A stretch of 64,000 nt of DNA from an uncultured Oscillospiraceae bacterium (lineage in GTDB: Bacteria > Bacillota > Clostridia > Christensenellales > CAG-314). Shown piece after piece: positions 11,361 to 63,843 of this stretch. The stretch is taken from NCBI GenBank assembly GCA_964535505.1, contig CAZHUH010000002.1:52814-116813 (forward strand), read 5' to 3'. A program made the position numbers and the translations under genes. The notes beneath the pieces were generated by a model. The model did not search any database. It saw nothing but the letters and a program-made list of their open reading frames with translations, and was not told where the DNA came from. Each line of letters starts with the position of its first letter. Position 1 is the stretch's first letter.

Positions 11361-11876
11361 TTATGTAAGCACCTGCACTTTGTCAGCGCTGACATTCAGC
11401 AGTGTTACAACCACTTGTTTTATTTTTACCCTAACCAATGGGTCATCGGCACCTTGGCACACGACTACCACGCCGAAAATTTGCGGCGGCAGAGTTTTTA
11501 GCACCAGAGGTTGACCTTGCACCATAACCACGCTTTGCGTTTGCGAAACAACGTCATCGCCCTTTTGCACCGTTTCCGTTTGGTAAGCGTAAACCTTTTC
11601 GTCCACGGCACTATACGAAATTGCCACTTTTACGTTTTTGCACCCGTCGATTTGGGCTATTACACTACTAATTTTATTTTCCATTTGCGCGATATATTCG
11701 TCAAATTCGGTTGTATCTTCGGCGGATTTGTCAACCTTTGTAGAAGTTGCAAAAACCGCCAAGCACACAACCGCCGCAAGCGCCAAGGCGATGTAAAGCT
11801 CTATGTTTTTTATCGATTTGATTTTTGCCGTTAGTTTTTTAATATTCATATTTTTGTTCATAACCTCATATTGCAA
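11361..11876 (-). CDS. spoIIIAG: Stage III sporulation protein AG
   Basis: N-terminal TM helix. The C-terminal segment ...FGVVVVCQGADDPLVRVKIKQVVVTLLNVSADKVQVL matches the conserved SpoIIIAG ring-forming domain pattern. Confidence 0.78.
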   Translation of the reverse strand: MQYEVMNKNMNIKKLTAKIKSIKNIELYIALALAAVVCLAVFATSTKVDKSAEDTTEFDEYIAQMENKISSVIAQIDGCKNVKVAISYSAVDEKVYAYQTETVQKGDDVVSQTQSVVMVQGQPLVLKTLPPQIFGVVVVCQGADDPLVRVKIKQVVVTLLNVSADKVQVLT

Positions 11877-11917
11877 AATCGTTTGGAAAATATTTTGTCC
11901 ATTTCACATATTCATCT

Positions 11918-12403
11918 TCAATCGTCGTTGTTCCATCGAAATTCCACAGGGAAAACGCAATCTACCGATTGCGCCGCACTTTGCGCTTTTTGCAAGCGTG
12001 CCGCAGTGCAGTTGACATTGAACGTTGCAACATAGCACCCTGTGTTTGCATCGAAATGCACCGAAACTTGCAAAAAACCTGCCCTTTGTAGGGCGTTTGT
12101 CAGCTCGGCAACGGCATTCGTGTTGCTTGTTTGTTGCGCCGTCAAATACGTTTTGTCTGCCTGCGCTTCGGCAACGTAGTCGAGGTAGTTTTGCTGCACC
12201 GAAACTTCCGCTTGGGAAAAGTTTACGTCAAAACTGCCCTGTTGAAAAAATGCAAACAACGGCTGAACCACCGCCAACGTTACCACCACGCCGATAACTG
12301 TTTTTACGTACTTTTTTGTTTGCCCGTCCGGCAAAATAATATCGCACAACACGGACAAAATGGCTATCCCTGCCACGCTTAAAATCCACTGTTGCATAGG
12401 CAT
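11918..12403 (-). CDS. spoIIIAF: Stage III sporulation protein AF
   Basis: Two N-terminal TM helices and the correct position in the operon. The start is uncertain (12397-12445). Confidence 0.62.
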   Translation of the reverse strand: MPMQQWILSVAGIAILSVLCDIILPDGQTKKYVKTVIGVVVTLAVVQPLFAFFQQGSFDVNFSQAEVSVQQNYLDYVAEAQADKTYLTAQQTSNTNAVAELTNALQRAGFLQVSVHFDANTGCYVATFNVNCTAARLQKAQSAAQSVDCVFPVEFRWNNDD

Positions 12404-12416
12404 CACAAGACAAATT

Positions 12417-13562
12417 TCAAACCAAGTTGGCGCAAGAAATGGCAATAAAAGTCAGAATACAAAACATAAATGCCACCGCAAACACTAAGGCGGAAAGAAA
12501 TGTTAAACTTTTGCAAATTCCGCTCAAAATTTTGAGATATTTGCTTTCTACAATGGGTTCGCTTATCGCCGAAACGGCTTGCAACCCCAAGTTTACGCAA
12601 ATGAGAGTTACCAAAGGTTTTGCCGCAATAAAAAACATAAGCAACATGCTCACCGCACCGAAGGCGTTTTTGATAAGGGATGTGCTTGCCACAACGATGT
12701 CGAAGCCGTCGGAAACGTAGCCGCCTAAAATAGGAATGTAGTTTTTGGCGGCAAACTTGGCGACGCGAAAAGATACTCCGTCGATGCCGGAAGCCGTTAT
12801 GCCCTGCACGGCGGTGAAAGCGGAAAACAGCGTGAACATAACACCCAAAATCCACGAAGAGGCACTGTTGAAAAACCCCGAAAGTTTTTCTACACGCAAA
12901 TTGGAGGAAATGTTGCTTACAACCACAAACGCCATACCGAAAACGGAAAGGGGCAGCAGCAAGTTTTTTACCATGCCGACCACCACCGACGAAAACATTA
13001 CCATTGCCGGTTGGCACACCGAAGAGGACACGTTGCCGCCGTTTGCCGTTACAAGTGTTAGCAAAATGGGCATCGCGGCGTCTGTTAGAGCAGCAGTTTG
13101 AAAAATCATCGCGGAAACTTGCCGATAGGCTTCCACCACAAGTGCCAAAACCGAAATGGAAATGACGGTTATGCCAACAAAAGAAATGACGTTGGATGTG
13201 TCCACCGAAACAAAGCCGTCGGAGGTGTTACGCACCAAACCGCACACCACCAAAATACAAAAAATGCTGACAAGTTGCGGCAAAATGGAGGAAAAGTTGC
13301 TGCCCAACATGGAACAGAACAATTCCCAAAAACTTTGGGTAGAATCGAACTCGCCGTTGATTATCTGCCGCACTTTTTCGGCAAAGTTTTGAAAAAACGG
13401 AGCGCTGACGTTTTCCATTTGGGAAAAATCGATGTTTTCCAAACCATTTTCCACTTCTTGTTGCAGGTCGGATTGAGTATCGGCAAAAGCCAACTGCGGG
13501 AAGGCAGCAAATAACACCAACCACAAAACTATTGGAATTAAAACAAGCACAAGTTTTTTCAT
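12417..13562 (-). CDS. spoIIIAE: Stage III sporulation protein AE (polytopic membrane protein)
   Basis: Signal-like N-terminus (MKKLVLVLIPIVLWLV), multiple TM helices and the correct size and position. The ORF track start at 13628 is probably too far upstream. Confidence 0.85.
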   Translation of the reverse strand: MKKLVLVLIPIVLWLVLFAAFPQLAFADTQSDLQQEVENGLENIDFSQMENVSAPFFQNFAEKVRQIINGEFDSTQSFWELFCSMLGSNFSSILPQLVSIFCILVVCGLVRNTSDGFVSVDTSNVISFVGITVISISVLALVVEAYRQVSAMIFQTAALTDAAMPILLTLVTANGGNVSSSVCQPAMVMFSSVVVGMVKNLLLPLSVFGMAFVVVSNISSNLRVEKLSGFFNSASSWILGVMFTLFSAFTAVQGITASGIDGVSFRVAKFAAKNYIPILGGYVSDGFDIVVASTSLIKNAFGAVSMLLMFFIAAKPLVTLICVNLGLQAVSAISEPIVESKYLKILSGICKSLTFLSALVFAVAFMFCILTFIAISCANLV

Positions 13563-13653
13563 GGCAACAAAAAATTTTCGGGGTTTGCAAGTGCAAAAAG
13601 TTGACGCAGCGCTCGTTCGGCGGCGCACGTGTCGCCGCTTGCTCGGGCAAATT

Positions 13654-14037
13654 TTACGCTATGCCTTTTATGAGGTTGAACAATTTTTCCACAATGGGCA
13701 AGGCGCAAAGCAAAATCGAAATTTTGGAGGCAAGCAAGACTTTGTCGCCAATGCTTTTGCAACCGGCATCGCAACAAAGGTTGTTGCCGAATTCCGCAAG
13801 GTAGCCGATGCCCACCACTTTGATAACGCAGCCGATAGATTGACTGTCGATGCCTGCCGTTGCGGAGAAGTTGTAGAAGGTGTAAATTACATCGAACAAC
13901 TTGTCGCAAATGGTAACGGTCAATAGAACCGATGCGCACACGGCAACCACAAGGGCAAATTCAGATTTAAGTTGTTTTGTCAAAACAGTGGCAACCACCG
14001 CGGCAATGGCAAACAACACAATTTTCAAAATATCCAT
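13654..14037 (-). CDS. spoIIIAD: Stage III sporulation protein AD
   Basis: 127-aa, 4-TM protein with ...VVGIGYLAEFGNNLCCDAG... characteristic of SpoIIIAD. Confidence 0.85.
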   Translation of the reverse strand: MDILKIVLFAIAAVVATVLTKQLKSEFALVVAVCASVLLTVTICDKLFDVIYTFYNFSATAGIDSQSIGCVIKVVGIGYLAEFGNNLCCDAGCKSIGDKVLLASKISILLCALPIVEKLFNLIKGIA

Positions 14038-14039
14038 AA

Positions 14040-14234
14040 CTACAACTCAAACAGCGCTTTCAACGTGTCGTAAAGTTGCGAAATCATATCCAGCAAAATT
14101 ACAAACGCGATAATTAGCCCTGCCACGGAGACGACTGTGGCAATTTCGTCTTTGCCGGTCTTTTTCAAAAGCATTGCCGCAATGGCGGTTATTATGCCGA
14201 TGGCGGCAATTTTGAAAATTATCATTATATCCAT
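14040..14234 (-). CDS. spoIIIAC: Stage III sporulation protein AC
   Basis: 64 aa with 2 TM helices (MDIMIIFKIAAIGIITAIAAMLLKKTGKDEIATVV...). The ORF track N-terminal extension was rejected. Confidence 0.8.
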   Translation of the reverse strand: MDIMIIFKIAAIGIITAIAAMLLKKTGKDEIATVVSVAGLIIAFVILLDMISQLYDTLKALFEL

Positions 14235-14322
14235 ATTCCACCCAAAAGCACAACGGTTTTGCTTGATGGCACACTGCTTTTGCCAAACGTAATTTAGCGG
14301 CACACTACTGCCGAATGTAACC

Positions 14323-14766
14323 CTACAAAAACAAGATGCCTGCCATAACACCTAACAGCAAACCCAGTTTGACATAGATCGAAGCCTTTTTTGCCGAGGC
14401 GGAAGCTTCAGATAAATCGGTTTCGAACTGCTTTTGAAAAAATTTCAAATGTTCTAAAAGCGCACCTCCGCCGACACAATCCAAGTTGGCGAAAAAATCG
14501 GACAAGCTCTTTTTTTGCAATGCAGAACAATAGCAATATGTTTTTTGCTGCAATGCTTCGCAAAATGGCGCGCTGCAACTTTGGCAAAAATCGGCGTTGA
14601 AGGTGCCCAATTCCAACTGCTTGCCGCAAACGTTCAACTGTAATGCCACGCAGTACCTAACCAAATCGGCATACAAATTGTTTTTTTGCACTGCGCGCTT
14701 TTTTAGGTGCAAACCAAAGGCAAATCCGCCCACAACGCAGCAAACAAATGCTATTATGCGTATCAT
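14323..14766 (-). CDS. spoIIIAB: Stage III sporulation protein AB
   Basis: 147 aa with a TM helix at each end. It lies between spoIIIAA and spoIIIAC. Confidence 0.7.
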   Translation of the reverse strand: MIRIIAFVCCVVGGFAFGLHLKKRAVQKNNLYADLVRYCVALQLNVCGKQLELGTFNADFCQSCSAPFCEALQQKTYCYCSALQKKSLSDFFANLDCVGGGALLEHLKFFQKQFETDLSEASASAKKASIYVKLGLLLGVMAGILFL

Positions 14767-14831
14767 AGTATTTTATACTTGTCCATTTTGTAGAATAATT
14801 TGAAGATTTTTGCCGTTATTTGAGAAGTTTA

Positions 14832-15689
14832 TCAAGTTTCAGACAAGTTTACTACCGTTTGCGAAAATGTGTCTTTTTGCAGCAACACAGCATAGTAAAA
14901 TGCCGAAACGGCACTACCCAAAAGCGTTTTCAGCTCGGCAAGACTGTTTGCGTGTATGCTTGCGGCAACCCTTACACCGCTTGACACGGCATGTTGCAAA
15001 AGAGGTAATTCACCTGCCGACAGTTCGTCGCAAACTATCCAATCGGGCGACATTGCTCGCACCGCCGTTTCAAACGCATAGCGTTTGTCTGCAAACAAAA
15101 ACACATCGCAAAAAGATTCGTCAAAGCCATGGCAAGCGGAAATTTCCCCACGCTCGTCCACGACAACAACGTTTTCGTCGCGAGAAAGTTTCAATGCCAA
15201 ATCGCGCAAGTAGGTGGTTTTGCCGCTGCGCGGCGGCCCTGCCACAATTACGCTTTGCCGAAAAGTTTGCGCACAAGCAACTCCCTTTGCCACACGCACA
15301 CACAGTGAAGTGTACTTTTTGAAAACGTCGCCGCCCTTTTCGCCGCACACTCCCACACGACTTCCGTCGGTCAAGGTGAAAAAGCCTTGCGCAAGCATTT
15401 TTTCGTAAGCGTAGACGGAACTGTTGCACGCCCTTTTGATAAAGTTTTCGCAAAAGCAACCAAAGTTCGCGGCATCTTTGGGCGTTGACAAAAATTTGTT
15501 GTTACCCAGCCAAAACCACTTGCCGCAAACATTGGCTTTGATAGGCTTGTTGTCGCGAAGGCGCAATTCTCGCAAACCGCTTACACTTCGCAGATAGCCG
15601 CCGACTTCTTGCGGCAAACACTCCCAAAAGTTCATACAACATTGTATTGGACAAGCCGCAAAATCAGAACCGCAAAAGAAAAACGACAT
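14832..15689 (-). CDS. spoIIIAA: Stage III sporulation protein AA (AAA+ ATPase)
   Basis: Walker A GPPRSGKTT and Walker B VVVVDE. It is the first gene of the cluster. The true start may be the internal Met near 15635. Confidence 0.85.
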   Translation of the reverse strand: MSFFFCGSDFAACPIQCCMNFWECLPQEVGGYLRSVSGLRELRLRDNKPIKANVCGKWFWLGNNKFLSTPKDAANFGCFCENFIKRACNSSVYAYEKMLAQGFFTLTDGSRVGVCGEKGGDVFKKYTSLCVRVAKGVACAQTFRQSVIVAGPPRSGKTTYLRDLALKLSRDENVVVVDERGEISACHGFDESFCDVFLFADKRYAFETAVRAMSPDWIVCDELSAGELPLLQHAVSSGVRVAASIHANSLAELKTLLGSAVSAFYYAVLLQKDTFSQTVVNLSET

Positions 15690-15821
15690 AAAATTCCTTT
15701 TTGAACGTTGGGCGGATACAAATACGAGAAGATAAAAAGGCTCTGTAATAAATGTTGTTGGTGATAGTATTAATCAACAAACGATAACCGACAAAAAATC
15801 AATAAATAAAAGATAATCAAT

Positions 15822-15877
15822 AAATATTCAAAAGAAAATCAAATATTCAAAAGAAAATCAAATATTCAAAAGAAAAA
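15822..15877. repeat. Tandem repeat, 3 x 19 bp (AAATATTCAAAAGAAAATC), between the efp terminator and spoIIIAA
   Basis: Two exact copies (15822-15840, 15841-15859) and a third almost complete copy that merges into the terminator stem. Confidence 0.9.
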
Positions 15878-15920
15878 TGCACTTTCTTTTATTGCATTGC
15901 AAAAGAAAGTGCATTTTTGA
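15872..15920 (-). terminator. Intrinsic terminator after efp (bidirectional shape)
   Basis: 16-bp stem AAATGCACTTTCTTTT / AAAAGAAAGTGCATTT with T-runs on both sides. Confidence 0.8.
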
Positions 15921-15938
15921 TTTTAAAATTGTGTTAAT

Positions 15939-16499
15939 TTACTTTACGCGTTCCATATATTCGCCTGTGCGAGTGTCGATACGAATACGTTCGCCTTCGT
16001 TTACAAACATGGGGACCATAAGGGTGTAACCTGTTTCTACCGTTGCTTGTTTGGTAGCATTAGTCGCCGTGTTTCCTGCAACGCCCGGATCACACTTGGT
16101 GATGAGCAATTCAACAAAGTTGGGCGCTTCTACCGAGAATGCTTCGCCTTTGTAGAACTTGATAGTTGCCGTCATGTTTTCCGTCATAAACATCAATGCG
16201 TCTTCCACTTGAGAATGATTCAAGGGAACTTGTTCGTAAGTTTCTTGATCCATAAAGTAGTAGATGTCGCCATCGCTGTAGAGATATTGCATTTCTTTGC
16301 TTTCAATGTGTGCCAGCTCGAATTTTTCCGAAGGGTTGAACGTTTCTTCGCGAACCGCGCCCGTTACCACGTTTTTGATTTTTGTGCGCACGAATGCCGC
16401 GCCTTTGCCGGGTTTTACGTGTTGAAAATCAACGATAGTATAAATTCCATTGTTGTAAACAAACGTTACGCCTTTTCTGAAATCTCCTGCTAAAATCAT
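15939..16499 (-). CDS. efp: Elongation factor P
   Basis: 186 aa, including ...[17 protein letters not shown]... with the conserved modified Lys loop. Confidence 0.97.
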
Positions 16500-16520
16500 T
16501 GTTATGTGCCTCCTGTACCT

Positions 16521-17588
16521 TTATAAAATTATAATGTTTTTGTCTGAAGTTGTCAAATCAATTACACTGTCTTCTTCAATAAGCAACAAATCTTCAATTC
16601 TTACGCCGCCGACTTTGGGCACATAAATGCCCGGTTCGCACGTGATAAGTTGTTTGGGTTGTAATTTGTCGGGAGAAAGCATTGACGCACGAGGATTTTC
16701 GTGAATGTCGATGCCCAAACTGTGCCCTGTGCTGTGGGTGAAGTTTTCCGCATAGCCGTTGGCTTTTATCACTTCGCGGCAAAAACTATCCAATTCTCTG
16801 CCACCCATGCCGGGGTAGGCGTTGGTAATGCCGTTGCGTTGAGCCATCAAAACCACGTTGTAAATTTTGCGCAATTCCGCACTGGGTTCGCCAACGAAAA
16901 CCGTTCGGGTCATATCCGAACAATATCCGTGGTAGCGGGCGCCGAAATCCATTGTTACGGGGTCGCCGTTTTGGATAACTTTGTCGGTTGGGTGCGCATG
17001 CGGTTTGGAAGAATTTACTCCGGAAGCGATGATTGTTTCGAAGGCTAAGCCTTCCGCACCGTTTTTTGCCATGAGGTATTCCAACTCGACCGCCAAATCT
17101 TTTTCGGTGATGCCTGCTTTGATGACGTTTAGCACCTGCGAAAAAGCCGCGTCGGTTATCGATTGCGCCCTTTTGATATAGGAAATTTCCGTTTCGTCTT
17201 TGAAACTGCGAACGGCGTTGATATGTGCGCCCACGGGAGCAAACGTAACGTCTTTGATACCCGTGCGCAGTTCTTCGTAATCACAAACAGTAAGTTCTGT
17301 GTCCTCGAAACCCACCGTTTTTACGCCGTTTTCCTTAAAAATGGAAGTAACAACCGAGTTTGCACTGATGCCGTTGGCAATTTGCCGCACTTCCACACCG
17401 TCGTTTTCTAACGATTGCGCCATTTCGTAGTAGCGCGGATCAGTGATGAAGATGTTTTTGTTCTTTTTTAGCAACACCAAGTAGCCAAAAGTTGATTGAA
17501 ACCCCGTAAAATACATTCTGTTTTTGTCGCTTATTACCAAAATTGCATCGGTTTGCGCCAAAGAGAATAGTTTGTCTGTACTTTTCAT
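16521..17588 (-). CDS. M24 family Xaa-Pro aminopeptidase/dipeptidase
   Basis: M24 metal-ligand segments DFGARYHGYCSDMTRT, HSTGHSLGIDIHE and EPG..V....GVRIED. It sits upstream of efp, like B. subtilis yqhT. Confidence 0.9.
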   Translation of the reverse strand: MKSTDKLFSLAQTDAILVISDKNRMYFTGFQSTFGYLVLLKKNKNIFITDPRYYEMAQSLENDGVEVRQIANGISANSVVTSIFKENGVKTVGFEDTELTVCDYEELRTGIKDVTFAPVGAHINAVRSFKDETEISYIKRAQSITDAAFSQVLNVIKAGITEKDLAVELEYLMAKNGAEGLAFETIIASGVNSSKPHAHPTDKVIQNGDPVTMDFGARYHGYCSDMTRTVFVGEPSAELRKIYNVVLMAQRNGITNAYPGMGGRELDSFCREVIKANGYAENFTHSTGHSLGIDIHENPRASMLSPDKLQPKQLITCEPGIYVPKVGGVRIEDLLLIEEDSVIDLTTSDKNIIIL

Positions 17589-17599
17589 ACCCCCTCCTG

Positions 17600-18448
17600 T
17601 TACAAAATACTTTCGTAAATGCGTTTCATTTCCATTGCGTCATCCGCTTGTGTGCCGTCGGATTCGCAAATTATCGTTGGATGCAGATTGTGTTTTTTCA
17701 ACACTTTTGCCAAAGGCAAAAATTCCGGACCGAAAACATTGTCGGCAAACGTTAGGTGCCGCACTTCGCCGCCTGCGCTGTATTCGATCTTGGAAAAATG
17801 CACGTGCATTTTGTCGGCACGCTCTTTTCCCAAGCCGTTTTCTACTGTTAAAATTAGTTGTTCAAAATCCTCTTCCGTTTTCAAACTGCCTTGTGTACGA
17901 GCGTTGATGTGCCCGAAATCGACAGTGGGCAGAAAGAAATCGGCTATTTTGCAAAACTCCACCACTTCGGCAACGTCGCCTATTTGGTTGATTTTTCCCA
18001 TTGTTTCGGGGCAAAACCAAATGTCCGTCATGCCGCACGCCGCAATTTTTTCCGCCAAAAAAGCCAGTCGCTTTTGCGTGAGGGCAACGGCATCGGAACG
18101 AGTCATTTTCCCAACCGTTGACGGATGAAAAACCACGCGGTTGCCGCAGAATTGCCGCACTTTTTGTGCACTGCGCAAAACGTAGTCGTAAGATTTTTCC
18201 GCCATTTCGTCAGAGGGGTTTGCAAAATTTATATAGTAGGGCGCGTGAACGGTAATTTCTACGCCATACTTTTGCCCTTCTATGCCAATTTCGCGCGCTT
18301 TTTCATCGCTGATGTTTATGCCGCGGCCGAAAGAATATTCGTATACGTTCAGTCCCTGCTCGGCACACCACTTGGGTGCTTCCACAGAGGATTTGTGCCC
18401 TTCGTCGTAAAACCGTATAGAGTTCCCGCTAGGTCCGAATTTTATCAT
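17600..18448 (-). CDS. Endonuclease IV-like TIM-barrel protein (AP endonuclease family 2)
   Basis: The pattern of Nfo metal-ligand segments is present: VHAPYYINFA, VFHPS, CPETMG, TVDFGH, HVHFS, ICES. Confidence 0.7.
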   Translation of the reverse strand: MIKFGPSGNSIRFYDEGHKSSVEAPKWCAEQGLNVYEYSFGRGINISDEKAREIGIEGQKYGVEITVHAPYYINFANPSDEMAEKSYDYVLRSAQKVRQFCGNRVVFHPSTVGKMTRSDAVALTQKRLAFLAEKIAACGMTDIWFCPETMGKINQIGDVAEVVEFCKIADFFLPTVDFGHINARTQGSLKTEEDFEQLILTVENGLGKERADKMHVHFSKIEYSAGGEVRHLTFADNVFGPEFLPLAKVLKKHNLHPTIICESDGTQADDAMEMKRIYESIL

Positions 18449-19322
18449 TTGCCACCTCGCAATCGTGAACTAGTTGTTCGGCAAGTTGTCCTTCATCTGC
18501 AAATTTTTGAATAGGTCTTATGTAGTTCAGCAAGGCAATTTTTACTTTTTTGCCGTACAAGTTGCCGTTGAAATTTAACAAATGTGCTTCCACTTTTTTG
18601 GTTGAAAAGTTGAAAGTTGGCGTTGTGCCAACGTTAACAATGGCTTTGTAGAGTGTGCCATCCACCGAAACTTGTCCCACAAAAACGCCTTCGGGAAGAA
18701 GTTTTTCGGGCGAAACAGACAAATTTGCCGTTGGAAAACCCAGTGTGCCGCCAACGTGGCGACCTCGTTCCACACTGCCCTCGAAGAAAAAAGGCTGCGA
18801 CAAAAAGGTGTTTGCACGTTCCACTTGGAAATTTGAAAGCAACTGCCTGATTAGCGTGCTGCTTACCTTTTGATTGTTACATGTTACAATGTCGACAATC
18901 TCGACGGGTGCAATGCCTTCTAAATAGCTTTTGACTTTTTCGGCAGATATAAGGTCGCTTCCGCAAGTGAAATCTTCGCCGCAAACCACACCGCACAAAT
19001 CGTAGCGTGAAATTTGCTTCAAAAATTCTTCGCCGCACATTGACATAAATGCCTTGTCGAATTGGGCGCAAAGCACTGCGTCAACACCCAAATCAGCGTA
19101 GATTCCCAACCGTTCTTCAAATGTGTAAAGCAATTTTGTGGAACGATTCATCGTTTCGAAATGATTGTTGGAAAAGGTAAAAAGTACAACTTTGGCACTA
19201 CGTCCTGCCAAAGTTTGTGCTTTTTCAAGCAATTTGACGTGTCCCAAATGCATGCAATCGAAAAATCCCAAGCACAGAACCATCGGGTGAACGTATTTTT
19301 CGCCTAGTTTTACTACTTCCAC
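18429..19322 (-). CDS. ribF: Bifunctional riboflavin kinase / FMN adenylyltransferase
   Basis: The N-terminal GFFDCMHLGH nucleotidyltransferase motif and a C-terminal riboflavin kinase segment (GFPTANL...) are present. Confidence 0.93.
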   Translation of the reverse strand: MEVVKLGEKYVHPMVLCLGFFDCMHLGHVKLLEKAQTLAGRSAKVVLFTFSNNHFETMNRSTKLLYTFEERLGIYADLGVDAVLCAQFDKAFMSMCGEEFLKQISRYDLCGVVCGEDFTCGSDLISAEKVKSYLEGIAPVEIVDIVTCNNQKVSSTLIRQLLSNFQVERANTFLSQPFFFEGSVERGRHVGGTLGFPTANLSVSPEKLLPEGVFVGQVSVDGTLYKAIVNVGTTPTFNFSTKKVEAHLLNFNGNLYGKKVKIALLNYIRPIQKFADEGQLAEQLVHDCEVANDKIRT

Positions 19323-19329
19323 AATTTAC

Positions 19330-20178
19330 CTACAAATCTTTTAGATAGTATTGCAAGTTCAGCGTTCCGTCGTCGTTTTTTGCCAAACCGAAAAACTGCG
19401 ACTTACAATAAATTTTTCTGTAACCCGTTTCAAACGGACAAGCAATTTTGCGCCCGCTATTCAAGCGGTCGTACAAGTTATCGGGCAAAACGCACACTTC
19501 GACATCTTGCAGTGGATAAGTTAAGTCCAACACACATTTTTCTTTTTGTTCGCGCACTTCGTCAAGCGTAAAGGCGTTTTCGGTGTCGAAACAGCCCGAT
19601 TGCAACCTGATAAGGCAACTCATATACCCAACAGTGCCGCAAAGCTCCGCCAAATCTCGTGCAAGCGAACGAATGTAGGTGCCTGCGCTGCATTTGATAT
19701 CAAACACAAAGGTGTTTTGGCTGTGTTGACGCAAAAGGGAAAACTGAAAAACAGTTACTTTTCGCGAAGGCAATTCTACGTTATCGCCGCCGCGCGCAAG
19801 CTTGTATGCTTTTACTCCCCCCACGGAAATTGCCGAATATGATGGTGGAATTTGCGAAATTTGCCCCACCAATTTTGGCAATGCCGCGACAATTTGCGCT
19901 TCGTCGGGCACATCACCCACGCCGCAAACCGTGCCGTAACTATCCAACGTGTCGGTTGTTTTGCCAAAGGTGAAATAGGCGCGATAAAACTTGACTTTGT
20001 CTGTAAGAAAGTTGAACAATTTTGTTGCGCGCCCAAGTGCTACGGGCAAGACTCCCGCTGCGCCCGGATCCAACGTGCCCAAATGACCGGCTTTTTCGTG
20101 AAAAACATGTTTTACGCACACCACCACATCGCTGGCGGTTGCCCCAACCGGTTTGAGTACGTTTACAAATCCGTCCAT
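19330..20178 (-). CDS. truB: tRNA pseudouridine(55) synthase
   Basis: The GHLGTLDPGAAGVLPV catalytic Asp motif is present. Confidence 0.93.
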   Translation of the reverse strand: MDGFVNVLKPVGATASDVVVCVKHVFHEKAGHLGTLDPGAAGVLPVALGRATKLFNFLTDKVKFYRAYFTFGKTTDTLDSYGTVCGVGDVPDEAQIVAALPKLVGQISQIPPSYSAISVGGVKAYKLARGGDNVELPSRKVTVFQFSLLRQHSQNTFVFDIKCSAGTYIRSLARDLAELCGTVGYMSCLIRLQSGCFDTENAFTLDEVREQKEKCVLDLTYPLQDVEVCVLPDNLYDRLNSGRKIACPFETGYRKIYCKSQFFGLAKNDDGTLNLQYYLKDL

Positions 20179-20230
20179 TTTTTCACCTATATTTTAGAAA
20201 ATTAATATTTTTACAACATTGCTTGGCTCG

Positions 20231-21196
20231 TTATTCCATCACAAATGAAAATTCACGCACAATTCTCTCTATAACGTCTTCCAACATGCCGTTTATCATA
20301 CAACCTGCCGCCACAATGTGTCCGTTGCCGCCAAACTGTCGGCAGATATCGCGAACGTTAAAATCTTTGCCGCGCATGCTGACTTTGAAACTGTTGGGGG
20401 CATATTCGCACAAACTTACTCCGGCAACCGCCGTTGTTACGGCTATGGCGTTGCTTACAATGCCTTCGGAAACAGTTGCATCCACGCCAAATTCCGTCAA
20501 ATCGTCTTGCGTAATATAAATAAGCATCAATTTGCCATCGAAATAACTGCGCATACGCGACATGGCTTTGCCCCAAACTTTGGTACCCAAATAGGTGGTA
20601 TCTTTGAAAAACACCCTGTTTACTTTCATAATGTCGGCACCGAAACCGCACATGTCGGCAGCCATCAAAAAGCTGGCGGCATCTGTGTTGCTGTTGGCAA
20701 AGTTGCCCGTATCTGTGCACAATCCCATATACAAATAGGTGGCAATTTCCTTATCTATCTCTACGCCAAGGCACTTTGTTACTTCGTAGATGATTTGGCA
20801 AGTGCTGGCATAGTCTTTCAAACAGTTATACTTGGAAAAATATTCGCCGCCATGGTGATCGATGGTCATTGTTTCGTCAAACGCATCGTACACGTCGGAA
20901 AATTCGCCAAGTCGAAAAACGTCGCCGCAATCTACCGCCACCATCAATTTGTACTTGCCAAAGAAAGTTTGGTTGTACAACGCCGATTGTTCGAACTGTT
21001 TTACTCCGTCGGTCATTGGAACGTCGCAAAACAGCGTAACCCTTTTCCCGAGTTTTTTTAGCGCCAAACATAGCGCAATCGTTGCGCCCACCGTGTCGCC
21101 GTCAGGGCGAGTGTGGCTGAACAGTGCGATATCGTCTTTTTGCTGCAAAATTTGGGCAACTTCGGCTATTTCAGTTGTTTTTCTTGTTGATTTCAT
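20231..21196 (-). CDS. nrnA: DHH/DHHA1 phosphoesterase (NrnA-type oligoribonuclease / pAp phosphatase)
   Basis: DHH motifs HTRPDGDTVGA, DCGD and DHHGG, plus the DHHA1 motif GGNGH. Confidence 0.88.
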   Translation of the reverse strand: MKSTRKTTEIAEVAQILQQKDDIALFSHTRPDGDTVGATIALCLALKKLGKRVTLFCDVPMTDGVKQFEQSALYNQTFFGKYKLMVAVDCGDVFRLGEFSDVYDAFDETMTIDHHGGEYFSKYNCLKDYASTCQIIYEVTKCLGVEIDKEIATYLYMGLCTDTGNFANSNTDAASFLMAADMCGFGADIMKVNRVFFKDTTYLGTKVWGKAMSRMRSYFDGKLMLIYITQDDLTEFGVDATVSEGIVSNAIAVTTAVAGVSLCEYAPNSFKVSMRGKDFNVRDICRQFGGNGHIVAAGCMINGMLEDVIERIVREFSFVME

Positions 21197-26402: not shown

Positions 26403-26503
26403 AACATTTCTCCTATATTGTTTTTGCGCAAATGAAAAAACTTGCCGCTTTTTGGCACATTTGCCGCCGTACTTTGCCCTTAATTTGACGGATACGGATT
26501 TTC

Positions 26504-26536
26504 AAACAAAAAGAGCGAGGGAAAACCCTCACTCTC
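26504..26536 (-). terminator. Attenuator-type intrinsic terminator inside the rimP-nusA leader
   Basis: On the minus strand: AGAGTGAGGG-TTTT-CCCTCGCTCT followed by TTTTTGTTT. It lies about 100 nt upstream of the rimP ATG and about 95 nt downstream of the promoter. Confidence 0.55.
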
Positions 26537-26630
26537 ACCGTAGTATAAGATTCAACTAGGCGAAAGAAATGCGGCAAGTATCCCATATTTTAAGTTAATG
26601 GCATACCGTATCTCATTTCCGTGTGTAATA

Positions 26631-26659
26631 AGTATACCACACAAAAATGTCTTTGACAA
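26631..26659 (-). promoter_or_regulatory. Sigma-A promoter of the rimP-nusA-infB operon
   Basis: On the minus strand: TTGTCA (26659-26654), 17-nt spacer ending in TGG, then TATACT (26636-26631). Confidence 0.55.
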
Positions 26660-26701
26660 CTGTTTATTAAAAATAATATACTTATTCTGCAATATTTTGT
26701 G

Positions 26702-26734
26702 CAAAAAAACAGCCGAAAAGGGCGATTTCGCTGC
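26702..26734 (-). terminator. Intrinsic terminator after the PolC-N-like gene
   Basis: On the minus strand: CAGCGAAAT...TTTTCGGCTG hairpin followed by T7. Confidence 0.6.
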
Positions 26735-26747
26735 AAAAAAGCCGATT

Positions 26748-28391
26748 TTACTTGGCGTTGCTTGCCAAAAACGACATGCACTTTGCAACTGTCATTGCCT
26801 TATCCTCGCAGTTGGCGGTTGGGCGGCTATCGATTTTAAGCGATTTTGCCACCTCTTCAAGTTGCGAATAGGCGGGGCGAACGTCGACGGTGCTGTTTTC
26901 AAACAAGCGTTGAAAAGCGTCCGCAGTGGACACAATTTTGTTGGAAAAGTTGTAGCCCAAAGGTGCGGCATAGTAGTTGAGCAACTCCGTAAGTTCAAAA
27001 AGATTATCGCCAACCAAAATACTTTGGAAAGTAAATTTGAACAAATCTCCGATAATTTCCGTAAGGGTGGGGCTTAGCGAAAGTTGCTTTACAGAGATGT
27101 TGGTTTCTTTCAACTGCTGTTCGGGCAAATCCATTTCCGGCAGAACGCATGTGAAAAATTTCTCTTTCATGTGTCCGTTTAGCAAGCGCACACCGCACAA
27201 GGCGAAAATTTTGTCCTTGGTGATGTTGTATCCTGTAACGTTGGCAAAAAGCACCACGCAGTCTTTGCCTTGCAATACCGACGGGCGTTCTTCAAGTTGC
27301 ATCAACGATAGTTGGCGATATTCTTCCGCCGATTGCGGGCGCACCAAAACGTAACTTTCGGGCACACCGCGTTTGAATTTGGGCTGCAAATTTATCGGCT
27401 CGATACGGCACTTGCAAATATCGTACATTTGCAGTTCCAACCGTTGCGAAAACTGGCTATAAACCACCTTGCCGCGCACAACAATTTCCAAGCCGTCGGT
27501 AAGAAATGCGAGTTTTTTCATGAGCTTATCGTTGGAAAGGCGCTGTTTTTCGCTTATTGTGTGCACTTCCGAATCGGGTTTGCCGGTGGTTTGCTTGATG
27601 GTTTCCACGTCCTCTATTTTGAAGCGCACAAACATCAAACATGGCATTGTTGCGCCGGAGCCGTCGGTTAGGTTGAATTTGCAAAGTTTCAAAATAGAGT
27701 TATTCTTCACGGCGCGCAATTCCTTTTCGGAAATTTTGCCGCAAATTACGCAACTGTCCATTGGGGTGCGAATGTCGGAAATGTACATTGGTTTTGACAC
27801 TATTTCCTTGCCTATATACTTCACCACATCCGTTACGTTAAAATACCGTTGGGGTTTTAGCATTTCTTTGTTGATGGCAAGGTGCACCAAACGTTCCTGG
27901 TTTTCGATATCCGCATTGCCCAACGTTGCAGATTTGTCTTCCACAAGAAAAAATTGCACATTGTAGCAACTGTATGCAGCAAAAAAGGCGGAAAGTTGCG
28001 AAGTAAATTCGGCAATTTCCATGTTGCGCTTTGTAAATTTGTTGACGTTGAAGGTTGCCGTTGCGTTGAAATCTTGCACCTTTGCGGAAATTTTGTCTTG
28101 CTTGATATCGGCAAACAGCGGGAAACGCTTTTTGACGTAGTCGACAACCAACGCAACAAAACTGCGTTCGTTGAACTTGTCGTTGGCAAACTGTACTTCG
28201 CAACGATAGCCTTTTGGCATGTTTTCCGAGACAACGGCACGCATTTCGCCCCGAACGCCGCCATCCAAAGTGGAAACATCGGGGTAAGAAATAACACAGT
28301 AGACGCGTTTTAGCACCTTGTCTACTCGTATGTCCCTCACGCGCAAGTTTGGCATTTGAGGGAATTTTTGTTTTAATGCGTCAACTAACAT
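26748..28391 (-). CDS. PolC N-terminal-region-like protein: N-domain, OB fold and a degenerate DnaQ-like exonuclease domain; no PHP or polymerase core
   Basis: 547 aa from the ATG at 28391 (AAGGAAG SD), or 558 aa from the TTG at 28424. It occupies the polC slot between ispG and rimP. The OB-like segment is CVICGKISEKELRAVKNNSILKLCKFNLTDGSG...VVRGKVVYSQFSQRLELQMYDI. The C-terminal 190 aa are colinear with the PolC exonuclease domain, but Exo I, II and III acidic/His residues are replaced. Confidence 0.6.
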   Translation of the reverse strand: MLVDALKQKFPQMPNLRVRDIRVDKVLKRVYCVISYPDVSTLDGGVRGEMRAVVSENMPKGYRCEVQFANDKFNERSFVALVVDYVKKRFPLFADIKQDKISAKVQDFNATATFNVNKFTKRNMEIAEFTSQLSAFFAAYSCYNVQFFLVEDKSATLGNADIENQERLVHLAINKEMLKPQRYFNVTDVVKYIGKEIVSKPMYISDIRTPMDSCVICGKISEKELRAVKNNSILKLCKFNLTDGSGATMPCLMFVRFKIEDVETIKQTTGKPDSEVHTISEKQRLSNDKLMKKLAFLTDGLEIVVRGKVVYSQFSQRLELQMYDICKCRIEPINLQPKFKRGVPESYVLVRPQSAEEYRQLSLMQLEERPSVLQGKDCVVLFANVTGYNITKDKIFALCGVRLLNGHMKEKFFTCVLPEMDLPEQQLKETNISVKQLSLSPTLTEIIGDLFKFTFQSILVGDNLFELTELLNYYAAPLGYNFSNKIVSTADAFQRLFENSTVDVRPAYSQLEEVAKSLKIDSRPTANCEDKAMTVAKCMSFLASNAK

Positions 28392-28615
28392 TTCTTCCTT
28401 TTGTGAAATCGAACAAGACGACAAAATTGGTGTATAAACACATTTTTAGCTATACGTATGTGCAAAAACTTGTACAAAGTACTTTTTAGGCGCAAGTGTT
28501 GTCGGATGTGATTAGGCGGCAAAACGCTGCAAGAAAGGCGCGCCTTTCCATAAAAGGTTCCGTGAAAGCCGCAAACGTTTCACCATAAATTGTGCCGAAT
28601 TCGCCGACACATCTT

Positions 28616-61422: not shown

Positions 61423-63843
61423 TCAACCGCCTATAAGTTTGTAAATTACAATGTCGTCTTGTTGTCCAGCGGCGTAGCAGGAAAAGCTACCTACGGTGGC
61501 GTTGTAGCGCAGTTGATTTCCATCGTGGCTTAATTGAGAAACTATTGCTGCGTTGCCGAACACATCTATTTCTATCGTCCAAGGGGCAAGAGAAATCTCT
61601 GAAGAAATTGCCAATCCGTTGTCCGTTGAGCAAATGTAGCCATCGTTGTTTTCGTCATAAAACGCCCACAAGCCGTTTACAACGCCGCTTAGCAACGTGA
61701 ACTTTTGTACGGCAAAATTCGGCTCAACCAAATTGTTGCCGCTTTTTGCAATTTCCGTTTGAGCTCTGCCGCTGCTGTTTTTCTCAATGGACAAAGCAAA
61801 ATTGTAGTATGTTGCCGCAATTATCACCGTATCGCCCGAAGAAAGTGTGCTTACGTCCGTTACAAGCACCCACGTTTCGCCGGCATCCGCTGCTGTCTCC
61901 GTTTCCAACGTAATTGTTGTGTCACCTAAAACCGTGCCTGTGTAAACGCCATCGGCAGAAACGACAACTTCTATGCCGTTAACGGAAACTTTGGTGAGGG
62001 TGTAGCCGTTGTCCACGACCACTTTGAATGTGAATGTTGTGCCGTCGGTACCGCAATTTGTGCTTAAATCAATAACGGTCGCATTTCCAGAGGAACGGGT
62101 GTCAACGGAAATTGTGTGAAGTTCCGCCAAAGTTTGGGCGCAAATGTCGCAAATGCCGTCGGAGTTGACATCGGTATGCGAAATTGGCGCAACAACAAGT
62201 TCTGACGCGGAGATTTCGCTTTTCGTTGTGTCATCTCCGACAAAAAGTTTGTGGCAAACAGTACACTCAAAGTGTTCTTTCATGCCATTTTGCGTGCAAG
62301 TTGGGGATTCTGCCTCCTGAAACACAAAATTGTGCGGCAATGGCGCAAGGTCGTCGATTTTTGTTTGGTTGCACACCATGCACGAAAAAGTTATTACGCC
62401 GTTTTGGGAGCATGTGGGTTGGGAGATAACCGTGCCGTTATCCCAAGAGTGCCCTACTTCCGCAATTTGTTGGTAGGTTGAGTAGTCGCAGCGAGTGCAA
62501 GTTTTGTAGGCGTTCCACCCCACTTCGGTGCAAGTGGGCGATTTTGCGCTGTGCGAAACGATATCGTGTCCGAGAGACGCGATTTCTTGCTGTGCCACAA
62601 GAATTTCTCCGCAAATTGCGCAATGTTTGCCTTCCGTTTTGCCTGCTGTTGTGCAAGTGGGAGCAACGGCTTGGTCGAAAACTTCAGTGTGCTCCAATGC
62701 CGCAATTTGTTGGTAGGTTGAGTAGTCGCAACGTGTGCAAGTTTTGTAGGCGTTCCACCCAACTTCGGAACAAGTGGGAGATTGTGCTTTGTGTGTAAGC
62801 AAATTGTGCCCAAGAGCAGCAAGCTGTTCCGCCTTGTTCTGCCCGCAAGCACTGCAATGAAATGCTTTTGAGCCATTTTCGGTGCATGTCGGTTCTTTAA
62901 TGATTCTGCCGCTGTCCCAACTGTGCCCGAGCGCAGGGGTTTCTTGCTGAGCAACCAACACGACATTACAAACAGAGCAGAACTTGCCCTCCGTTTTGCC
63001 GTTTTCCGTGCAAGTTGCGGCAACCGCCGAAATTGTTTGCACAGTGTGCCCTTTTGCGGCAATTTGTTGATAGGTTGAGTAGTCGCAACGTGTGCAAGCT
63101 TCATAAGCGTTCCACCCAACTTCAGTGCAAGTGGGCGATTTTGCGTCGTGAAAAACCAAGTTGTGCCCAAGAGCAGGCGTTTCCGATTGCGCAACCAAAA
63201 CAGCTTTGCAAACTGCGCAGTACTTGCCTTCCGTTTTGCCTGCTGTTGTGCAAGTGGGTGCAACGGCTTGGTCGACAACTTCAGTGTGCCCAAGCGCCGC
63301 CAATTCTTCCCTTTGCAGCAAAACACCGCAAAGGGTACATTCTTTGTGTTTGCTGCCAATCGCCGTGCAAGTTGGCTCTACGTCCACTATCCATTCGCTT
63401 GCGGTGTGCTCACGCAACGGTTCTTGCGAGGTTTCCTTTTCGCCGCATAGGGAACAAATGTGTTCCATTTCGCCAAATTCTGTGCATGTGGAGGCTCTGG
63501 TTGTTGTCCATTCTCCGAAAAGGTGCGCTGCCAAAATATCGAGTTGCTCCGTTTTGGTTTGTCCGCAAACATTGCAAGTGAAAGTTACTTCTGCGCCGAC
63601 AGTGCACGTTGCGCCTTGCGTAACTTCACCGTTATTCCAACTGTGCTCAGTTTTTGCGACAACTTCCCTTTTTGTTTCGCCACACTTGGTGCACACGGAA
63701 GTGAGTTCTCCCTCTGCCGTGCAAGTGGCAATCTTTGTGATGGCAAATTCCGACCAAATGTGCTTACAGTTGCACGCGGCAAATGCGAGTAAAGCAACAG
63801 ACAAAACAAAAACAACAATCGACATCCGTAAAATCTTTTTCAT
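61423..63843 (-). CDS. Large secreted protein or lipoprotein with 13 tandem His/Cys3 modules, a Listeria-Bacteroides-type repeat-like segment and an unassigned C-terminal beta-rich domain
   Basis: 806 aa with an AAGGAGAA SD. The signal peptide is MKKILRMSIVVFVLSVALLAFAAC. There are 13 repeats of the pattern H-x10-12-[AP]TC[TS]-x2-G-x6-C-x2-C. Near-identical 70-bp DNA segments lie at 62461-62530 and 62701-62770. Confidence 0.85.
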   Translation of the reverse strand: MKKILRMSIVVFVLSVALLAFAACNCKHIWSEFAITKIATCTAEGELTSVCTKCGETKREVVAKTEHSWNNGEVTQGATCTVGAEVTFTCNVCGQTKTEQLDILAAHLFGEWTTTRASTCTEFGEMEHICSLCGEKETSQEPLREHTASEWIVDVEPTCTAIGSKHKECTLCGVLLQREELAALGHTEVVDQAVAPTCTTAGKTEGKYCAVCKAVLVAQSETPALGHNLVFHDAKSPTCTEVGWNAYEACTRCDYSTYQQIAAKGHTVQTISAVAATCTENGKTEGKFCSVCNVVLVAQQETPALGHSWDSGRIIKEPTCTENGSKAFHCSACGQNKAEQLAALGHNLLTHKAQSPTCSEVGWNAYKTCTRCDYSTYQQIAALEHTEVFDQAVAPTCTTAGKTEGKHCAICGEILVAQQEIASLGHDIVSHSAKSPTCTEVGWNAYKTCTRCDYSTYQQIAEVGHSWDNGTVISQPTCSQNGVITFSCMVCNQTKIDDLAPLPHNFVFQEAESPTCTQNGMKEHFECTVCHKLFVGDDTTKSEISASELVVAPISHTDVNSDGICDICAQTLAELHTISVDTRSSGNATVIDLSTNCGTDGTTFTFKVVVDNGYTLTKVSVNGIEVVVSADGVYTGTVLGDTTITLETETAADAGETWVLVTDVSTLSSGDTVIIAATYYNFALSIEKNSSGRAQTEIAKSGNNLVEPNFAVQKFTLLSGVVNGLWAFYDENNDGYICSTDNGLAISSEISLAPWTIEIDVFGNAAIVSQLSHDGNQLRYNATVGSFSCYAAGQQDDIVIYKLIGG

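Follow-up and report, generated by a model that had tools for sequence, protein, structure and literature searches.

The stretch of DNA analysed here (the window, 64,000 nucleotides) comes from contig CAZHUH010000002.1 of an uncultured Oscillospiraceae bacterium and carries, between ispG and rimP, a gene that we refer to as gene X. In low-GC Gram-positive bacteria PolC is regarded as the hallmark replicase, and a new class of antibiotics is directed against it. We propose that X is probably a PolC-derived replisome accessory protein that lacks a polymerase and, in the clade represented by the window, is a pseudo-exonuclease.

Gene X lies in an uninterrupted open reading frame (ORF) on the minus strand, which spans 558 codons when counted from a TTG (26748..28424). 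The homologues all begin at an internal methionine (MLVD/MIID) and not at this TTG, and the corresponding ATG at 28391 has a ribosome-binding site, AAAGGAAG, 5 nt upstream. Because the homologue N-termini and the ribosome-binding site favour the internal ATG, we take the product to be 547 amino acids long (26748..28391); of the range of 547-558 residues given in the initial annotation, the upper value describes the open frame and the lower value the real product. The gene order on the minus strand is pyrH-frr-uppS-cdsA-dxr-rseP-ispG-X-rimP-nusA-ylxR-ylxQ-infB-rbfA-nrnA-truB. The slot between rseP/(proS or ispG) and rimP-nusA is the location of polC in Clostridia and Bacilli, and gene X is found in this slot both in the window and in the loci of its relatives (L001-L059). 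The initial annotation had placed an intact ORF in the polC slot, 345 bp away from rimP, and both statements hold.

The OB-fold and exonuclease domains of X descend from PolC, as judged from profile and fold comparisons. A family profile covering residues 190-328 of X aligns with residues 200-308 of five genuine PolCs, the N-termini of which were taken from supplement 3 of PMC3919608, with an hhalign probability of 97.8% (E 8e-13), and the alignment includes the PolC-typical 'GKxI...' lead-in. The Pfam family tRNA_anti-codon (PF01336) was detected in the OB domain of 34 of the 50 members scanned. We built an AlphaFold2 model of X on 33 homologues (mean predicted local distance difference test score, pLDDT, 84), and its top Foldseek match is the full-length PolC of E. 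faecium (9qpc_A, E 2e-13, 415 columns); the PolC of G. kaustophilus, which is devoid of the N-terminal domain (NTD) and the exonuclease domain in the structure, is matched as well, over 134 columns (3f2b_A). For the C-terminal domain, Pfam RNase_T is found in the window protein with an E-value of 9e-5, and the best matches of the family profile in the PDB are the PolC exonucleases 2p1j (4.5e-12) and 9qpc (3e-8). The template modelling scores of this domain, normalised to the target, are 0.66-0.75 against DnaQ, epsilon and the PolC exonuclease, and RNase T also reaches ~0.7. Among motif-intact relatives, the NCBIfam PolC model ranks first or second in all seven that were scanned and first in most, and one of them (P0097) spans model positions 224-586, from the OB through the exonuclease domain, without a break. 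The OB-fold-like segment and the DnaQ-like C-terminal domain that the initial annotation had recognised are therefore both real.

What follows the exonuclease domain in PolC is missing. The protein terminates immediately past the exonuclease fold, and the Pol3 core (palm, thumb and fingers), the HhH domain and the C-terminal clamp motif are absent; neither Pfam nor NCBIfam yields a match in X to a PHP domain, which in PolC is split by the exonuclease and has the metal site HHDHEHCDH. The scores against the NCBIfam PolC models NF001688 and TIGR01405 are 37.5 and 35.8 bits, with cut-offs of 873 and 1043. In the place of the PHP-N segment, X has a linker of about 45 residues with AlphaFold2 confidence of 60-80 and scant secondary structure, which hhalign does not align with PolC PHP-N. 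The absence of PHP-N between the OB and DnaQ-like domains, and of a PHP domain, polymerase core and clamp-binding tail, was correctly described in the initial annotation. The OB domain of X also differs from canonical PolC OB domains by a helical hairpin insertion (residues ~258-297, window ~27501-27620; helices 262-269 and 273-295). Different insertions are found nearby in other subgroups, long and K/E-rich in P0094 and P0141 and acidic in P0097.

The NTD of X is composed of KH-like modules with an alpha-beta-beta-alpha(-alpha)-beta topology, and was modelled with a pLDDT of 87 when AlphaFold2 was run on this domain only. Foldseek matches the NTD to the KH domains of NusA, ribosomal protein uS3, BON domains and the ring-building motifs of type III secretion systems. 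Matches to E. coli tau, through its C-terminal domain in the alpha-beta-epsilon-tau complex of Pol III (5fku_E and 5fkv_E, with E-values of 0.03-0.09 and probabilities of 0.4-0.5), are too weak to interpret.

In the window protein all five catalytic residues of the DEDDh site are replaced. In an alignment of 342 distinct family members, the Exo I Asp and Glu correspond to F382 and N384, the Exo II Asp to L467, and the Exo III His and Asp to A526 and K531, which are the same replacements that had been read from the window sequence initially. The 342 members include 275 with all five DEDDh residues and 63 with none or one, and the latter make up the entire degenerate clade, where the substitutes are F/Y/H, N, L/I, A/V and K/T, respectively. 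Motif-intact relatives read 'VVFDxETTGL / HNxxFD / HRAxxDA', and have strong RNase_T matches (1e-29 to 1e-41 in eight of ten scanned) together with OB matches. The window protein is thus predicted to be catalytically dead. In a neighbour-joining tree the 63 degenerate members form one exclusive clade. Since most of the family retains an intact DEDDh site, the polymerase-less architecture is the older trait and catalysis was lost later.

Close homologues of X fall into 46 clusters (527-558 amino acids, 41-100% identity), and 47 reference species loci, all from metagenome-assembled genomes (MAGs) of uncultured Clostridia, share the order ispG-X-rimP; in about half of them the ispG stop overlaps the start of X. 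Within the clade, the median pairwise ratios of nonsynonymous to synonymous substitution rates (dN/dS) are 0.115 for the NTD, 0.052 for the OB domain, 0.071 for the linker and 0.127 for the pseudo-exonuclease, with an overall omega of ~0.08 and values of 0.05-0.13 across every domain. By this measure X is under strong purifying selection. When 1.84 billion representative proteins were searched with a profile, 206 clusters fell below an E-value of 1e-30 and 636 below 1e-10. The best 150 clusters are nearly all 480-580 amino acids long, with a few shorter fragments, and distant members keep the same NTD-OB-linker-DnaQ layout. From these comparisons, X is best described as the degenerate branch of a large NTD-OB-DnaQ family with members of ~500-580 residues, not as an isolated oddity. 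The survey of related genomes that the initial annotation had suggested thus finds the same short gene in 47 species loci and in a larger family, and its view that X is not a simple truncation is upheld by the shared length, synteny and dN/dS of the relatives.

Three divergent motif-intact subgroups also occupy the polC slot, in the order ispG-X-rimP or rseP-X-rimP. In all, 59 loci were examined (L001-L047 and L054-L057, L048-L053, and L058 and L059). Because the polC slot is occupied by X in every lineage, we consider X the positional counterpart of polC. Reduction of polC in situ fits at least as well as duplication. The proposal of a dead PolC-front-end paralogue in the initial annotation therefore stands as to the PolC-related front and the dead site, and the term 'paralogue' is unproven. 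The linkage of X and rimP is not obligatory, because unrelated genes are inserted between them in a few relatives: L034 has rplI, rho, mnmA, a sigma/anti-sigma pair and a vWA lipoprotein at 11640-20380, and L052 has a 1212-residue surface protein with Flg_new repeats, an alr-like gene, lspA and rluD at 11591-17900. In L058 and L059 (P0383 and P0466), the cluster is without dxr, ispG and pyrH and X directly follows rseP, so that these Clostridia either encode the non-mevalonate isoprenoid genes at another site or lack them.

All traceable carriers are MAGs of Clostridia or Eubacteriales, and neither the homologue searches nor the cluster look-ups returned a family member from a cultured species. 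Relatives carry generic database labels ('hypothetical', 'exonuclease domain-containing', 'DNA polymerase III epsilon subunit family exonuclease' and '3'-5' exoribonuclease'). Pfam and NCBIfam yield generic domain matches only, with no curated family for X, and our literature searches did not find a paper describing the family, in agreement with the initial annotation, which had not recognised it as a described one. NCBI taxonomy (taxid 2840648) places 'Candidatus Fimimonas' in the Myxococcaceae, and several X-bearing MAGs are labelled 'Corallococcus sp.' (L005, L019 and P0022). This label is almost certainly wrong, because the gene order is of the Firmicutes/Clostridia type and the window carries spoIIIAE.

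The linker contains a candidate beta-clamp-binding motif. Across the 342 sequences, the Gln at position 360 is conserved in 324, a hydrophobic residue at +3 in 333 and Phe at +4 in 231; position +2 is [NSD], and the surrounding linker is variable. Motif-intact members are dominated by QxNLF, QxDLF, QxSLF and QxGLF. Predicted clamp motifs of DnaE1 and PolC include QGNLF, QASLF, QLGLF and QLSFF (PMC3919608, supplement 3), and the linker motif, which sits in a low-confidence part of the model, has the same pattern. Members of the family may bind the clamp through the linker. The initial annotation had considered a replisome or clamp-loader interaction module, and this conserved motif adds one new point in its support. 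We also considered that the motif might be a relic of PHP motif I (HxHTxxSxxD, with Q-x-S-x-M-D as a look-alike), and rejected this as unsupported, as hhalign gives no alignment and the Gln is not conserved in PolC.

We hypothesize that gene X arose from polC by loss of the entire PHP-polymerase-HhH-clamp-tail part, while the alpha/beta NTD, the PolC-type OB domain and the DnaQ-type exonuclease were retained, and that this polymerase-less form would be ancestral to the family. Motif-intact members would then serve as stand-alone, epsilon-like 3'-5' proofreading subunits for a separate C-family polymerase, most simply DnaE1, and may be tethered to the sliding clamp by the Qx[NDSG][LMF]F linker motif and to single-stranded DNA by the OB domain. 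In Ca. Fimimonas, Ca. Limihabitans and their relatives, the five catalytic residues were lost once, in a common ancestor, and X has been maintained by strong purifying selection since then; here it would be a non-catalytic part of the replisome, structural or regulatory, that we propose still binds DNA and partners. The data show the architecture, the descent of the OB and exonuclease domains, the loss of the catalytic residues in a single clade, the selection and the synteny, and from them we infer the replisome role, clamp binding and the identity of the partner polymerase. In B. subtilis, the PolC exonuclease is able to proofread for DnaE in trans, and in Clostridia the PHP proofreader of DnaE1 is usually intact (PMC12926913). 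Given this redundant proofreader in DnaE1, DnaQ-type catalysis could therefore be lost without losing proofreading.

A more far-reaching version of this proposal is that the PolC polymerase is gone from an entire uncultured radiation of gut and rumen Clostridia, which comprises hundreds of clusters at the species level and would be DnaE1-only, with X as a clamp-tethered proofreader and, in Fimimonas and Limihabitans, as a pseudo-enzyme. We advance this version tentatively and regard it as possible but somewhat doubtful. The loss of PolC is not without precedent: DnaE1-only Firmicutes exist (PMC12926913, supplement 6; PMC3919608), and complete genomes of this kind include those of Thermodesulfobium, Thermaerobacter, Thermacetogenium, Desulfoscipio, Desulfofarcimen, Ammonifex, Gottschalkia and Ca. 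Desulforudis. No C-family polymerase is encoded in the 64-kb window, none is present among the ORFs of more than 700 amino acids at any X locus, and tblastn with PHP and palm probes of PolC and DnaE1 detected neither PHP nor Pol3 in ~1.1 Mb of DNA flanking X. A polC displaced to a position nearby was considered for L034, L035 and L040, which have extra DNA after X, and was rejected; the L034 genes are not polC. A metagenome scan for split-gene intermediates gave four loci, all with the usual synteny.

Several observations weigh against X being a PolC-derived replisome protein or against parts of that proposal. Pfam at E<=1 gave no match, including to the PolC NI/NII domains, in the NTD of 50 members; local and global hhalign comparisons of the X NTD with PolC NTDs gave no match (probability 0.3%); and the NTD resembles generic KH/BON-like modules, with no PolC-specific link in the NTD-only fold search. 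The type of fold, with tandem alpha-beta-beta-alpha-alpha-beta modules, agrees with that of the PolC NTD, but homology of the first ~185 residues with this domain is unproven. Of the colinearity with the front of PolC that the initial annotation had claimed, the order of the OB and exonuclease domains stands, and the correspondence of the NTD is one of position, with no link in sequence or to a solved structure. PolC NTDs are themselves poorly conserved and the domain is absent from the G. kaustophilus PolC crystal structure 3F2B (PMC3919608), and it is unresolved in the cryo-electron microscopy structures of E. faecium PolC (PMC12592400). The window's own clade has QLSLM or Qx[SDN]F[VTA] in place of the family consensus, and there the linker motif may have become weaker or have been put to another use. 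The neighbour-joining tree was built on the whole protein, so that the degenerate clade could look more clearly monophyletic than it is if the dead domain evolves faster. Finally, the ~1.1 Mb of flanking DNA free of PHP and Pol3 is a small fraction of each genome.

An alternative is that PolC is split in these organisms, with a PHP-polymerase gene elsewhere and X as the detached front-end and exonuclease subunit, so that the two pieces rebuild PolC; the exonuclease piece would then have a purely structural role in the window's clade, where proofreading would fall to the PHP domain. Exo-less PolCs occur in Negativicutes and Clostridia (~6% of PolCs), which shows that modular rearrangement is tolerated (PMC3919608), X retains the PolC-type OB and exonuclease modules, and in the accessible part of the genome survey the cultured Christensenella, Ruminococcus, Fastidiosipila and Mageeibacillus lie outside the DnaE1-only block of complete genomes. 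However, a PHP/Pol3 gene adjoins X in none of the 59 loci, and the exonuclease is inserted inside the PHP domain in PolC, so that a clean split should leave remnants of PHP-N, of which none are detectable. The known Exo-less PolCs moreover retain their own NTD and OB domain, and the search for close homologues gave no long paralogue sharing the NTD and OB domain of X. We therefore consider a split PolC unlikely. A role in RNA metabolism, in which the family would consist of 3'-5' exoribonucleases or RNA-binding factors and the window's clade of non-catalytic RNA binders, is suggested by the similarity of the NTD model to NusA KH domains and uS3, by the roughly equal match of the exonuclease fold to RNase T and epsilon, by the '3'-5' exoribonuclease' labels on some relatives, and by the location of X directly upstream of rimP-nusA in a ribosome and translation neighbourhood (rimP-nusA-infB-rbfA-truB). 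Yet the position would simply be inherited from polC, from which a KH-like NTD could descend as well, and the labels are automatic; the best sequence matches are to the PolC exonuclease and OB domain and not to RNases, and the Qx[NDSG][LMF]F motif suits clamp binding better. We judge an RNA role to be distinctly improbable.

That the window protein could still be a nuclease with substitute residues might be read from the invariance of E445 and D449 and of N384, which takes the place of the Exo I Glu. E445 and D449 are not compensatory, because they are conserved in motif-intact relatives too (the 'TEIIxDLYKF' helix), and since none of the five DEDDh residues is left and their substitutes are mostly hydrophobic or basic, residual nuclease activity seems very improbable. 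Finally, X lies exactly at the polC location and has ~40% of the length of polC, as might be expected of a frameshifted or misassembled polC, a recent truncation or a decaying pseudogene. Against such an origin, independent assemblies show the same length and architecture throughout, in 46 close clusters, 47 species loci and hundreds of distant clusters; omega is ~0.08; and no PHP or Pol3 remnants lie downstream, where only 345 bp separate X from rimP. This conservation, selection and synteny rule out truncation, misassembly and pseudogene decay, and we give an artefact a negligible chance.

As a PolC derivative, X resembles PolC in its slot (rseP/ispG - X - rimP-nusA), in the homologous OB domain with its GKxI lead-in, in the NTD-OB-Exo order and in a DnaQ-type domain that is closest to PolC exonucleases. 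It differs in its length (~547 versus ~1430 residues), in the absence of both PHP halves, palm, thumb and fingers, HhH domain and C-terminal clamp motif, in the Q-motif located between the OB and exonuclease domains where PolC has PHP-N, in an NTD that cannot be aligned, and, in the window's clade, in the loss of DEDDh. With E. coli-type DnaQ/epsilon it shares a stand-alone DnaQ fold, apart from the polymerase, with the full DEDDh set in motif-intact relatives. E. coli epsilon has a clamp-binding motif of its own, as X may have, but the candidate motif of X precedes the exonuclease domain whereas that of epsilon follows it. X also has ~330 additional N-terminal residues (the alpha/beta NTD and the OB domain), lacks the C-terminal tail that binds the PHP domain of alpha, and is dead in the window's clade. 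The Exo-less PolC of Acidaminococcus consists of NTD, OB, PHP, Pol3 and HhH (Timinskas et al. 2014; PMC3919608). Such PolCs, found in Negativicutes and some Clostridia, are likewise natural modular reductions of PolC in Firmicutes that pair PolC with DnaE1, but the deletion is reciprocal: there the polymerase is kept and the exonuclease lost, and in X the exonuclease is kept and the polymerase lost. ImuB and the dead 3'-5' exonuclease domains of many Pol I orthologues, which are retained as structural components, are also enzyme folds under selection after loss of the active site, in a replication or repair setting, although their folds and families are other than that of X.

In the conservative reading, these results are a matter of annotation, as automated pipelines could miscount X genes as PolC or DnaQ. 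Beyond this, the polC slot is taken by a polymerase-less derivative in a large group of gut Clostridia that had gone unnoticed, which raises the question whether these bacteria replicate without PolC, with DnaE1. If they do, DnaE1 with a PolC-derived exonuclease subunit and no PolC would be the fourth way in which replicative polymerases are arranged in bacteria, and X would represent both a proofreading subunit of the epsilon kind that arose independently and, in the window's clade, a natural replisome pseudo-enzyme. It would also imply a Firmicutes class that is intrinsically insensitive to PolC inhibitors such as ibezapolstat, the sparing of gut commensals by which is currently attributed to PolC sequence variants (PMC11963600).

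Table 1. Gene X, its domains and the adjacent spacer (positions in the window).
Feature	Position	Strand	Details
Gene X (NTD - OB - linker - pseudo-exonuclease; polymerase-less, PolC-like)	26748..28391	-	ATG 28391, stop TAA 26750-26748
N-terminal domain, aa 1-185	27837..28391	-	Two tandem alpha/beta modules and a long helix
OB-fold domain, aa ~186-331	27399..27836	-	PolC-type lead-in 'IGKxI...PMYISDIR...CVICGKIS'
Inter-domain linker, aa ~332-376	27264..27398	-	Replaces the PolC PHP-N segment
Candidate beta-clamp-binding motif, aa 360-365	27297..27314	-	QLSLMQ in the window protein; family consensus Q-x-[NSDG]-[LFMI]-F
Pseudo-exonuclease (DnaQ/DEDDh fold), aa 377-547	26751..27263	-	RNase_T, 2p1j, 9qpc, Foldseek
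X-rimP intergenic region	26403..26747	-	Promoter-like site and hairpin; rimP start 26402

The remainder of the window is that of an ordinary spore-forming Clostridium chromosome, with ffh, comM, dprA, topA, trmFO, hslU, spoIIIAE and xseA. An ORF of 806 amino acids at 61423-63843 on the minus strand, which seems to begin with a signal or lipoprotein sequence (MKKILRMSIVVFVLSVALLAFAAC...), has no Pfam match at E<=1e-5.

In the spacer between X and rimP, Rfam families gave sub-threshold chance matches only, as they did around gene X as a whole. The hairpin immediately 3' of the X stop is not significant (z -1.1), so that the terminator that the initial annotation had assigned to X is doubtful. 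A pattern scan identified a near-consensus promoter-like site with an extended -10 element, TTGTCA-17-TGnTATACT, at 26659-26631 on the minus strand. About 90 nt past this site, 212 nt past the X stop and ~110 nt before the rimP start, a strong GC-rich hairpin is followed by a U-run (26536-26511, minus strand; dG -21.4, z -4.3, with 0 of 200 shuffles as good). This hairpin belongs to the rimP-nusA leader and looks like a leader terminator or attenuator of the rimP-nusA-infB operon. NusA autoregulation of the leader-attenuator kind is known in B. subtilis.

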